Shown piece after piece: positions 43,401 through 46,400 of a DNA stretch of 64,000 nucleotides. The stretch's first letter is position 1. The number at the start of each line of letters is the position of its first letter. Made by a program: the position numbers. Origin of the DNA: a bacterium (lineage in GTDB: Bacteria > Oederibacteriota > CAKKQC01). Location: positions 91,616 through 155,615 of the forward strand of contig CAKKQC010000008.1 of NCBI GenBank assembly GCA_919901855.1, written 5' to 3'.

Positions 43401-46400
43401 CGGGACGGCCTGGTCCGGGCGGCGGGCCGCGTACCAGATGAACGCCGCGACCTCGATGACCGTCGCGCACACGGGGTCCAGCTCCCGCGCGCGCTGCAGC
43501 TCCGCGTCGCACTCGTCGAACCGGCCCATGGCGGCCAGCGACAGCGCGTACCAGAGGTGCCCCTCGGCGTTGCCATCCTTGAGCTCGATGGCCTGCCGCA
43601 GCTCGTTGGCGGCCCCCGCCACGTCGTACGTGAACCCGAGCCGCACCAGCCCCAGCATGCCGTGCGTCTCCCCCAGGAACCTTCCGCATTCCACCGCCCG
43701 GCGGCCCGCCTGAAGCGCCCCGGGAATGATGTGCATCAGGAGCTGGGTGGGCGGAAAGCGCCCGGACACCCCCAGCGTGAGGAAACTGCGCGCCAGTCCG
43801 ACCTGCGCGAACGCATAGTCGCCGTCGAGTTCGATCGCGTGCATGAACCGGTCGCGCGCGCCCTGGATTTCGTCCGTGCCTTCCGCCTTCACCGAGTGGG
43901 ACGCGCGGAGGTACAGGATCTTCGCCTGCGCGCTCGCGGTGCCGAGCCGCGCGATGCGGCTGACCTCGCCTTCCTGCACCTCCACCCCGGCCACGCGGGC
44001 GGTCTCGCGAGCCACGTCCACGTAGATCCTGGTCATCGACCGGAGGTCGTCCTCCCAGTGTTTCGACCAGTGCACCGTGACCCCGTCGCCGGAGAGGCAC
44101 TCGAGGTCGAAGACGGCCATCCCGCCCGCGATCGCCGTCCTTCCCCGGATGATCGTCCCGGCCCTGAGCTCGGCGGCCACGGCGGCGGCCTCCGCCCCCC
44201 GGCCCGCCTGGCGCGCCATCGAATCCCAGCCGATCACCTCGAGGTTGCCGGCGCACGACACGGCGGTCACGAGCTCCTCCGACAGGCCGAGCGAGATGAA
44301 CTCGTCCTCCGGCTCCCCGCTCGCGTTCACGAGCGGGATGATCGCGACCCGGCAGGCCTTGGCGGCCGCCGCGGTCGCCCTCGCCTCCGGCGTGGCGGCG
44401 TCCGCCGTGTCCTCGCCGAACCACCGGTCCGCGAGGGACAGGCCCCCCTGCGCGTCCATGGCCGCCTCGGCCGCGTAGTCGGCGCTGGCCGCGGACTCGG
44501 CGAGGGCGGCGGATTCCGCCTCGCCGTCCCAGGGCATGACGACCCGGAAGAGCTCGATGGTCCGCTCGATGTTCTTCAGCGGACGCGCCGGGAGCTTCTC
44601 GAAGACGACCTCGGGCAGCTCCGCGGCCACCATGGCGCGGACCTGGCCGGAGACGGCGACGCCGCCGTGCGGCGAGACGGGCTCGACGCGGGCCGCGATG
44701 TTCACCCCGTCGCCGTAGAGGTCCCCGTCCCGCTCCACCACGTCCCCGGCGTGGACCCCGATGCGGAGCAGGAGGCGGCGATCCGGGCCCACGTCCCCGT
44801 TGCGCCCGCGCATGGCCTTCTGGATCTCGATCGCGCACCGGACCGCGTCCGGCGCCGACGCGAACTCGAGCATGAACGCGTCGCCGATGGTCTTGACCTC
44901 GCGCCCCGCGAACGCGGGCAGGTGGCGCCGGACCAGCCCCTCGTGCTCCTCGAGCAGGTCGAGCGCGAGCTCCTCGCTCTTCTCGGCGAGCCGGCTGAAC
45001 CCCACGATGTCCGTGAAGACTATCGCGGCGAACTTGCGATGGGTGGACGCACCCGGCTGCATATGGACGCTCACTCTACCATCCCCCGGGAACCGCGGGT
45101 GAGCCGCGCCATTGCGCGCCCGCCGGGTGGCGGTGTAGGATGCCTGCCAATTCAGGACCTGGGCAACGGCGTCCGGTCTGACCACAGGAGGTCAAGGAAT
45201 GACGACGACGAATGCCGTGCAGGAGTTCATGGACCGGATCGTTTCGCACAACCCGGGCGAGCCCGAGTTCCACCACCTCTTGGGGCCATACTTAACAAAT
45301 TAACATTCGTTGGCGAATGTTAATTTGTTAAGTATGGCCCCATGATACTCAGGCCTCCACCCGGTTGCGGCCCGCCGCCTTGGCGCGATAGAGCGCGGCG
45401 TCGGAGACCCGGAGGAGGTCCGCGGCATGCTCGTCCGGCCGCTCGAGACACGCCACGCCGATGGACACGGTGACCGCCGGCACCGGGAGATCCGGCATCT
45501 CGGGGAGCCGGACGGCCTCGAACTCCTCCCCGCCGTACCTTGCCACGAGGTCGCCGTCGCGGACCGCCAGGGCGAGCGCGCGGCCGAGCGCCTTGAGCAT
45601 GACGTCGCCCGCGGGATGGCCGTGCCGGTCGTTGAAGGCCTTGAAGAAATCGATGTCGAGCATGAGCACGGCCAGCGGCTCCTGGTGCCGCTTCGCGATC
45701 TGCGTCTGCTTGTCGAGGTACCCGTCGAGGAACCGCCGGTTGAACATGCCGGTCAGGACGTCCGTCGTCGCCTGCTCCTCGGCCCGGGACAGAGCGAGCA
45801 GACTGCCGATGGTCAGGGACGCGAGGCGGGCGTACGTCTCGGCCCGCTCGAGATCCTGCGGCGGGAACGGCTGCCCGGGCCGCGCGGTCAGGTGCACGAG
45901 CCCCACCGTCCGGCCGTGCGCGAGCAGCGGGATGCAGGCCATCCCCCCCGAAGTGTCCGCGATAAGCGGACACGTACACGGCGCGGACGAATCCGGCCCG
46001 GCCACCACGTAACGCTGGCCCGTCCGCATCGCGGGACACCCCTCGAGGGCCCGCGCGCTCGCGCCGGCCCGCCCGTCGTACCCCTCCTCCGCGAGCTCGC
46101 TCCCGTCCGCGGCCAGCATGAGCACCGACGCGGACCCGATCCCCGCCTCGGCATTCAGCACGGCCCTCAGCATGCGGACGGCCTGGTCCGGCTTGTCCAC
46201 GAACTGGATCTTCTCCGCCCAGTCGTTGAGCAGCGCGATGGAAGCCCCGCGCTCCAGCGCGGTCCGCACGATCCGGACTCCGCGCAGCGAGACGGCCAGC
46301 CCCGCGCCCAGCAGGAGCGCCATCCCCGCGAGCGTGCCGCCCAGGTATATCCGCTGGGGCAGCCTCGAGCGGCTGCGCGTCTGCTCGATCGTGGCGCCCA

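Follow-up and report, generated by a model that had tools for sequence, protein, structure and literature searches.

A terminal-repeat dimer of probable TIRtron origin at the breakpoint of a gdhA replacement in a Candidatus Coatesbacteria population

The 60-bp palindrome at positions 45282 to 45341 of a 64,000-nt stretch of contig CAKKQC010000008.1 (assembly GCA_919901855.1, forward-strand positions 91,616 to 155,615; hereafter the window) is, in our judgment, very probably a dimer of terminal inverted repeats (TIRs), that is, a miniature noncoding derivative of a TIRtron in which two TIRs stand head to head across 4 to 6 nt. We read it this way because the complete element found in the same window fits the TIRtron class. 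The dimer is also the left breakpoint of a replacement that removed codons 27 to 452 of gdhA and placed a GGDEF gene there. Elements of this kind, with their TIRYT proteins, have already been described, and the novelty specific to this locus is the truncation and replacement of gdhA. The window matches a 159.5-kb contig of a Hainich groundwater metagenome (well H43), the proteins of which are assigned by NCBI to a Candidatus Coatesbacteria metagenome-assembled genome (MAG).

The palindrome reads GGGGCCATACTTAACAAATTAACATTCG ttgg CGAATGTTAATTTGTTAAGTATGGCCCC and is perfect. Its 28-bp arms (45282 to 45309 and 45314 to 45341) enclose only a TTGG loop (45310 to 45313) and reach 29 bp when the T/A pair at 45281/45342 is included, each arm being a 27-nt TIR with one extra G/C pair. 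A first-pass annotation of this DNA had described two head-to-head copies of a terminal repeat enclosing TTGG, a description borne out by the 27-mer GGGGCCATACTTAACAAATTAACATTC, which occurs exactly four times in the window, at 45282 (plus strand) and 45315 (minus strand) in the palindrome and at 49323 (plus strand) and 50395 (minus strand) at the ends of the element spanning 49323 to 50421. With up to three mismatches permitted, 100 shuffles of the sequence gave no match to the 27-mer. The palindrome is an AT-rich island within sequence of 70% GC, and folding predicts that its two inverted repeats, a short distance apart, form one hairpin (-57.2 kcal/mol, z = -10.4, for the region as single-stranded RNA and -34.4 kcal/mol, z = -13.2, as DNA). 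The 27-mer itself has no GTAG tag and no internal hairpin and carries two direct TTAAC repeats instead. Stop codons are present in two frames of a single TIR and in all three frames, on both strands, of the dimer.

The element from which the dimer would derive is 1,099 bp long (49323 to 50421, minus strand) and is bounded by a left TIR at 49323 to 49349 and a right TIR at 50395 to 50421 that are complementary at 27 of 27 positions, or at 94% over 35 nt when extended. Its single gene (49350 to 50357, minus strand) encodes a 335-aa TIRYT, a Y1/HUH tyrosine transposase with a C-terminal helix-turn-helix (HTH) region. Pfam Y1_Tnp matches this protein with an E value of 5.1e-7 (30.3 bits against a cut-off of 23 bits), while the best NCBIfam match, REP_Tyr_transpos, scores 63 bits, under its 80-bit equivalog cut-off. 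Residues H60, H62, and Y119 are invariant across 27 homologs, and the transposase is apparently intact. Bac_DnaA_C was matched in 11 of the 27 aligned homologs and HTH_23 in 5. The C terminus of the window protein matches Bac_DnaA_C weakly (E = 0.046, 14 bits), and the protein aligns over its full length with the homologs that match Bac_DnaA_C or HTH models. The gene also has a G+C content at third codon positions (GC3) of 0.75, compared with 0.93 to 0.97 in neighboring genes. A predicted sigma-70-like promoter (TTGACA-18-CAGAAT, 50363 to 50392, minus strand; one found, 0.2 expected) lies directly against the inner side of the right TIR, its end 5 nt short of the TIRYT start codon (ATG). Public gene calls use other start codons, giving 294-aa and 704-aa versions of the 335-aa and 745-aa open reading frames (ORFs), respectively.

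RAYT-like genes flanked by long TIRs have been named TIRtrons and their proteins TIRYTs (Di Nocera, De Gregorio & Rocco 2013, BMC Genomics 14:522, PMC3733652), and most TIRYTs fall in subclass 2.1 of TnpA_REP, with a C-terminal Bac_DnaA_C/HTH extension (Quentin 2018, BMC Genomics 19:475, PMC6006769). The element in the window has the corresponding features: a RAYT-like Y1/HUH domain with its catalytic tyrosine, a protein longer than RAYTs with a C-terminal HTH-type region, long TIRs with a G-rich tip at fixed distances, and dispersed copies. Its tip, GGGGCCAT, matches the published GGGGWSAS motif at 6 of 8 positions; that motif is found in some TIRtrons and so is not obligatory (PMC3733652). 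The repeat families of TIRtrons have also been reported in single, dimeric, and grouped form (PMC3733652). The present case differs from published TIRtrons in its minimal dimers with 4- to 6-nt centers and its copy at a gene-replacement breakpoint, and perhaps in its host, a Candidatus Coatesbacteria MAG. The first-pass annotation had called the complete element a REPtron, a name that its long TIRs and TIRYT-type protein lead us to replace with TIRtron.

More than 5,000 homologs of the TIRYT exist, many of them named RayT or transposase and many on contigs of about 1.1 to 1.5 kb. Our survey of the family covered 80 relatives with 38 to 48% identity, taken from one genome per GTDB species and belonging mostly to Desulfobacterota MAGs, with some from NC10 and Nitrospirae. 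About 50 of the 80 are bounded by TIRs of 22 to 31 bp, and the length of the element varies little around a median of 1,091 bp. The TIRs of these relatives start with GGG(G)ACG and yield the logo GGGACG-YYC-WT-.AA-WWWWT-AA-.TT, so that the family has GGGACG where the window TIR has GGGGCC at its tip. Direct repeats of at least 4 nt are present in 33 of 50 TIRs, 29 of them with a spacing of 8 nt, compared with a shuffle expectation for direct half-sites that averages 10.7 and reaches 18 at most. The window TIR carries TTAAC twice, 8 nt apart and in the same register as the half-sites of the family. Extra TIR copies accompany 13 of 53 loci in the form of solo ends, mini-elements of 118 to 808 bp (the 118-bp one at L082), and second full copies. 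An exact 25-mer of the repeat had no match in the set of one genome per GTDB species, which places the repeat of this organism outside that set.

Within the source metagenome the repeat is dispersed, as had been proposed. Scanning metagenome contigs with a 22-mer of the TIR returned 12 loci, 8 of which are from the same sample and have coverages of 19 to 23, compared with 19 for the contig of the window. These same-sample contigs hold three further dimers, with centers GCCGGC, GCGGGC, and GCCGA, along with 12 or more additional TIR copies, the majority of them single and some with conserved GC-rich tails. The three dimer-bearing contigs have a coverage of 20, a GC content of 0.67 to 0.69, and tetranucleotide correlations with the window of 0.98 to 0.99. 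The TIR-bearing contigs of this sample yielded no second TIRYT. The same TIR is present on four JGI contigs from a different environment, one of which (L095) holds a full element whose TIRYT is 82% identical. The single TIRs in L089, L090, L097, and L098 are followed by a tail of the form GTCCGCCACCGC..ACGCC..GGGTCACCGGCGGCC or TCGGCC(T)CCCCCCACGAGGCCCAGCCTCCCGTTCAGGCC, and such tailed single TIRs are other noncoding elements with the same TIR; L090 also contains a 121-bp unit duplicated in tandem. The window holds a fifth dimer, a decayed 60-bp member of a sister subfamily at 7870 to 7929 (GGGTACGGGCTTAACTAATTAACTTACC cgcagg CAATTTAATTTTTTAAGCACGTCCCC), whose arms are 77% complementary and which occupies the short gap between convergent genes, with the TAA of the gene at 7916 to 11101 (minus strand) inside its right arm. 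All five dimers examined overlap a stop codon or sit no more than 11 nt away from one, and both the truncated gdhA ORF and the gene at 7916 to 11101 end on a TAA encoded by a TIR.

At the 60-bp dimer, gdhA breaks off. The remnant (45199 to 45303, plus strand) retains 26 native codons, to about 45275/45276, and is completed by eight codons and a TAA from the flank and the left arm (MTTTNAVQEFMDRIVSHNPGEPEFHH followed by LLGPYLTN and the stop). The resulting 34-aa ORF begins MTTTNAVQEFMDRIVSHNPGEPEFH, and its sole PDB matches are NADP-glutamate dehydrogenases, over residues 1 to 25. This site aligns with the 5' end of an intact 452-aa gdhA in a related genome (L101), where gdhA is divergent from the cyclase gene and is followed by genes for an ADP-ribosylglycohydrolase and an iron alcohol dehydrogenase (Fe-ADH). 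The L101 cyclase is 71% identical to that of the window, an adenylate/guanylate cyclase-TPR gene (42948 to 45062, minus strand) that lies downstream of the dimer on the minus strand. Nucleotide homology between the window and L101 extends from 42005 to 45275 and begins again at 47035. With L101 as the reference, the 1,759 bp at 45276 to 47034 replace 1,291 bp of gdhA, from codon 27 through 10 nt beyond the stop, and consist, in order, of CCTCTT, the TIR dimer, a 7-nt gap, the inversely oriented GGDEF gene, and a final 93 nt. The first-pass annotation missed both the truncation of gdhA and the 1.76-kb replacement that brought the GGDEF gene here. The palindrome is absent from the orthologous site of L101, as befits a dispersed repeat rather than a conserved feature of the gene. 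The remainder of gdhA was not found in the window or in any of the retrieved loci with an E. coli GdhA sequence as the query.

The gene that was brought in (45349 to 46941, minus strand) encodes a GAF-GGDEF diguanylate cyclase and has host-like codon usage, with a GC3 of 0.93. Its TGA (45349 to 45351) is separated from the palindrome by 7 nt rather than the 8 nt first reported, and its transcript would enter the dimer and then run toward the cyclase gene. The closest homolog is 40% identical, compared with 71 to 82% for relatives of the neighboring genes, and at this distance is uninformative for ordering the events. In the C-terminal part of the protein (45349 to 45600), the GGEEF and TVSIGVA motifs of the GGDEF domain are unusually close together, and the Pfam match to the domain is split in two; the protein may have an internal deletion and may be catalytically impaired.

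The flanks of the dimer are asymmetric. On the left, the arm is extended outward by CCACCTCTT (45273 to 45281, plus strand), which overlaps the final 3 nt of gdhA homology (CCA) and resembles two other flanks: CCACCTTT, on the outer side of the right TIR in the full element, and CCCTCTT, next to the dimer in L091. The right arm directly adjoins unrelated sequence, ATGATAC and then the GGDEF stop. This asymmetry suggests a deletion associated with an element end or recombination between copies, and the breakpoint most likely originated in an element-end-associated deletion or insertion or in recombination between TIR copies. At the right edge of the replacement, 2 nt before homology resumes, TGGCCCC (47026 to 47032) is a 7-nt inverted match to the TIR tip; local alignment in search of a degenerate TIR at this breakpoint yielded only this 7-mer, and 1.7% of random 50-nt windows score equally. 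The flanks of four dimers and the full element contain no target-site duplication and no consistent target-site motif. They are often, and variably, similar to CCTCTT/AAGAGG, a similarity that fits a weakly conserved continuation of the TIR into its flank better than a target site. A stub consisting of the TIR tip and flank, TGGCCCCAGAGG, lies outside the right TIR of the full element at 50427 to 50438 and is repeated outside the dimer in L091 at about 5074 to 5086; it could be what is left of an earlier end, or a site preferred as a target.

Independent assemblies reproduce the palindrome junction, which is for that reason genuine and not an artefact of assembly. Contigs L007 and L008, from separate assemblies, cover the whole palindrome base for base, a Logan assembly contig (L006) terminates inside it, and the 34-aa ORF that starts in the gdhA remnant and continues into the left arm has an identical sequence on contigs from other assemblies and other read sets. 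Palindromes are a known failure mode of assemblers, and four transposase-bearing contigs have their ends in or next to the left TIR, as repeats commonly cause, so that this repeat does break assemblies. Even so, a chimeric join or a hairpin contig end formed at the repeat has a negligible chance of having given rise to a junction that separate assemblies span.

If the palindrome is a TIRtron derivative, its form suggests how it could have moved. In single-stranded DNA the two TIRs of the full element would pair into a stem of 27 to 29 bp. The dimer would reproduce this stem with a minimal loop and would therefore be the smallest substrate open to recognition and mobilization in trans by the TIRYT, a scheme already proposed for RAYTs acting on REPINs. 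Cleavage or catalysis would take place at the conserved G-rich tip, and the C-terminal HTH would bind the pair of TTAAC half-sites, which are spaced by 8 nt. Two secondary effects can be predicted for the host: the stops of the dimer would close any ORF that it interrupts, and a very stable 3' hairpin is possible on the GGDEF transcript and on any transcript from the orphaned gdhA promoter.

Several points weigh against this interpretation. Mobilization in trans and recognition of the stem are steps that we infer. The four dimers differ in their centers and are almost identical in their arms, where simple copying of one master dimer predicts otherwise, and the TIR tip is GGGGCCAT rather than GGGACG or GGGGWSAS. 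Neither a target-site duplication nor an empty-site allele was found to mark a clean insertion of the dimer, which is instead tied to a loss of 1.3 kb and a gain of 1.76 kb that simple insertion does not explain. The other contigs are assigned to the same genome by coverage and composition only.

Better-known repeat systems resemble the dimer in part. REPINs (Bertels & Rainey 2011, PLoS Genet 7:e1002132) are likewise inverted-repeat doublets that form one long hairpin, are thought to be moved in trans by a Y1 transposase (RAYT) whose gene carries a flanking repeat, and combine, as in the data available here, one transposase gene with many short repeats. However, the repetitive extragenic palindromes (REPs) of which they are made are imperfect palindromes with GTAG, and REPINs are about 100 bp long with imperfect stems, whereas the window has a nonpalindromic 27-mer and a perfect stem. 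REPIN populations are also typically far larger than the roughly 20 copies seen in this incomplete genome. Enterobacterial REPtrons and BIMEs (Ton-Hoang 2012, NAR 40:3596) share with the window a Y1 gene between inverted copies of a dispersed repeat and inverted repeat pairs in intergenic regions, but the window element has no GTAG-tagged REP hairpin, no Y or Z REP types, and no linker motifs. The earlier suggestion of a BIME-like doublet was thus right about the geometry and wrong about the family, as the 27-mer is not a hairpin and has no GTAG. Bacterial miniature inverted-repeat transposable elements (MITEs) such as Correia/NEMIS and RUP are similar in having the short noncoding TIRs of an autonomous element, lying beside coding sequence, and forming a strong RNA hairpin; they depend on a DDE transposase and produce a target-site duplication, whereas the dimer has an HUH partner and no duplication was seen, which sets it outside the classical MITEs. 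Members of IS200/IS605 (IS608, ISDra2) share the HUH motif and single tyrosine, and a single-strand mechanism without target duplication would be expected in both cases. That family, unlike the window element with its perfect TIRs and 335-aa protein, has differing subterminal hairpins and no TIRs, its transposase is about 150 aa long and lacks an HTH, and the window element falls outside it.

Among other explanations for the palindrome, we consider it possible, though less probable, that it is a recombination scar, left by homologous or transposase-mediated recombination between a TIR-bearing copy in gdhA and another immediately beyond the GGDEF stop, so that its position reflects the rearrangement and not the arrival of a dimer formed beforehand. 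The truncation of gdhA exactly at the dimer and the ability of a palindromic repeat to recombine in either orientation are consistent with this, as is the contrast between a left arm with the CCACCTCTT extension seen at other copies and a right arm that abuts unrelated sequence. Such an origin would nevertheless need a further event for the second breakpoint at about 47034, where there is no TIR beyond the 7-mer, and no GGDEF donor locus was found, the closest homolog being 40% identical. We doubt that the dimer is the left end of a 1.76-kb TIR-bounded unit (45276 to 47034) that took the place of most of gdhA and brought the GGDEF gene along as its cargo, an idea prompted by TGGCCCC at the right edge and by a GGDEF gene without a close ortholog. 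If it were true, TIRYT elements or their end repeats would capture and relocate host signaling genes. An excision footprint or empty site of a former full TIRtron, raised in the first-pass annotation, would account for two element ends with almost nothing between them. We regard it as highly unlikely because the GTTGGC center matches neither interior edge of the full element (TCACGC... / ...TCAAGG), because three other dimers have the same architecture with 5- to 6-nt centers, and because the L101 site is plain gdhA coding sequence. A footprint would also leave the missing 1.3 kb of gdhA unexplained, and excision by characterized Y1/HUH relatives such as IS608 reseals the donor precisely (PMC5027513).

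The dimer could also be an RNA element selected by the host chiefly because it terminates or stabilizes the 3' end of the GGDEF mRNA or insulates the GGDEF and cyclase genes from each other, and the very stable hairpin, the closeness of all five dimers to stop codons, and the stabilization of upstream mRNA known for REPs (PMC3733652) would suit such a function. We think this improbable, as the stem has no U run, neither strand has a terminator-like site between 44800 and 45800, a search of Rfam with the palindrome returned only sub-threshold miRNA-hairpin noise, and closeness to stop codons is expected of any tolerated insertion in a genome with short intergenic regions. What follows the stem is AAGAGG on one strand (minus) and ATGATAC on the other (plus); with no U run, a canonical intrinsic terminator was excluded. 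An operator for a dimeric transcription factor controlling the flanking signaling genes might be expected to look like a perfect intergenic inverted repeat with AT-rich half-sites. This idea deserves almost no credence, given arms identical to transposon ends, copies at unrelated loci, absence from the orthologous locus, and a length of 60 bp that far exceeds typical operators.

The full TIRtron has altered a second host gene, a YqhD-like Fe-ADH (48156 to 49322, plus strand) that ends in a poly-C tract (49310 to 49320). In L101 the gene ends ...TGCCTCTGA, and the same sequence in the window continues ...TGCCTCT-A-C11-TT-TIR, so that the native TGA stop present in L101 is replaced by A, C11, TT, and the TIR. 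The length of the tract decides the frame. With the 11 C of the window, the Fe-ADH frame stays open across the TIR and gains about 280 codons, which lie antisense to the TIRYT gene; with the 12 C found in another assembly (L001, 10903 to 10914), it would stop at the TAA of the TIR. A poly-G/C run also adjoins the dimer in L094. At 140 to 175 (minus strand) of L101, 26 nt past the Fe-ADH stop on a contig that ends 195 nt past that stop, there is a TIR-like sequence, GGGGACGCGCTTAAGATTTTGGCGC. Its presence at the site of the TIRtron may reflect an ancient shared insertion or a hot spot, and this coincidence at the same Fe-ADH 3' site is only suggestive of a vertically inherited transposase gene.

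The window contains further repeats. A perfect palindrome at 22636 to 22680 (GGGGACACTCTTTCGATTCCCC a GGGGAATCGAAAGAGTGTCCCC) precedes the start of the gene at 21364 to 22614 (minus strand) by 22 nt. It starts with the published GGGGWSAS TIR motif and could represent either an operator or a dimer belonging to a different TIRtron family. The AT-rich palindrome at 25592 to 25635 (CATATTGCAAGATATTGAC acctgc GTCAATATCTTGCAATATG) is unrelated in sequence to the TIR and looks like a putative regulator binding site. Direct repeats at 15913 to 17712, spaced 1,166 to 1,169 bp apart with 71 to 82% identity, indicate two tandem paralogous genes. A 64-nt GC-rich repeat with 84% identity occurs at 15394 to 15457 and 56420 to 56483, 41 kb apart, and has no Rfam match.

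The dimer leaves the general picture of such repeats unchanged. What the locus offers is a clean natural example of the little-studied TIRYT/TIRtron class in a candidate phylum, where, in the available data, one population combines a single apparently intact transposase gene with minimal perfect TIR dimers and single TIRs. The consequences for host genes can be read at three places: gdhA has been cut to 26 codons, Fe-ADH has lost its stop, and the gene at the decayed dimer takes its stop from the repeat. For the family, the conserved tip, the half-sites spaced by 8 nt, the length of about 1.09 kb, and, in the window element, the promoter abutting the TIR suggest a division of work between the catalytic domain and the HTH.

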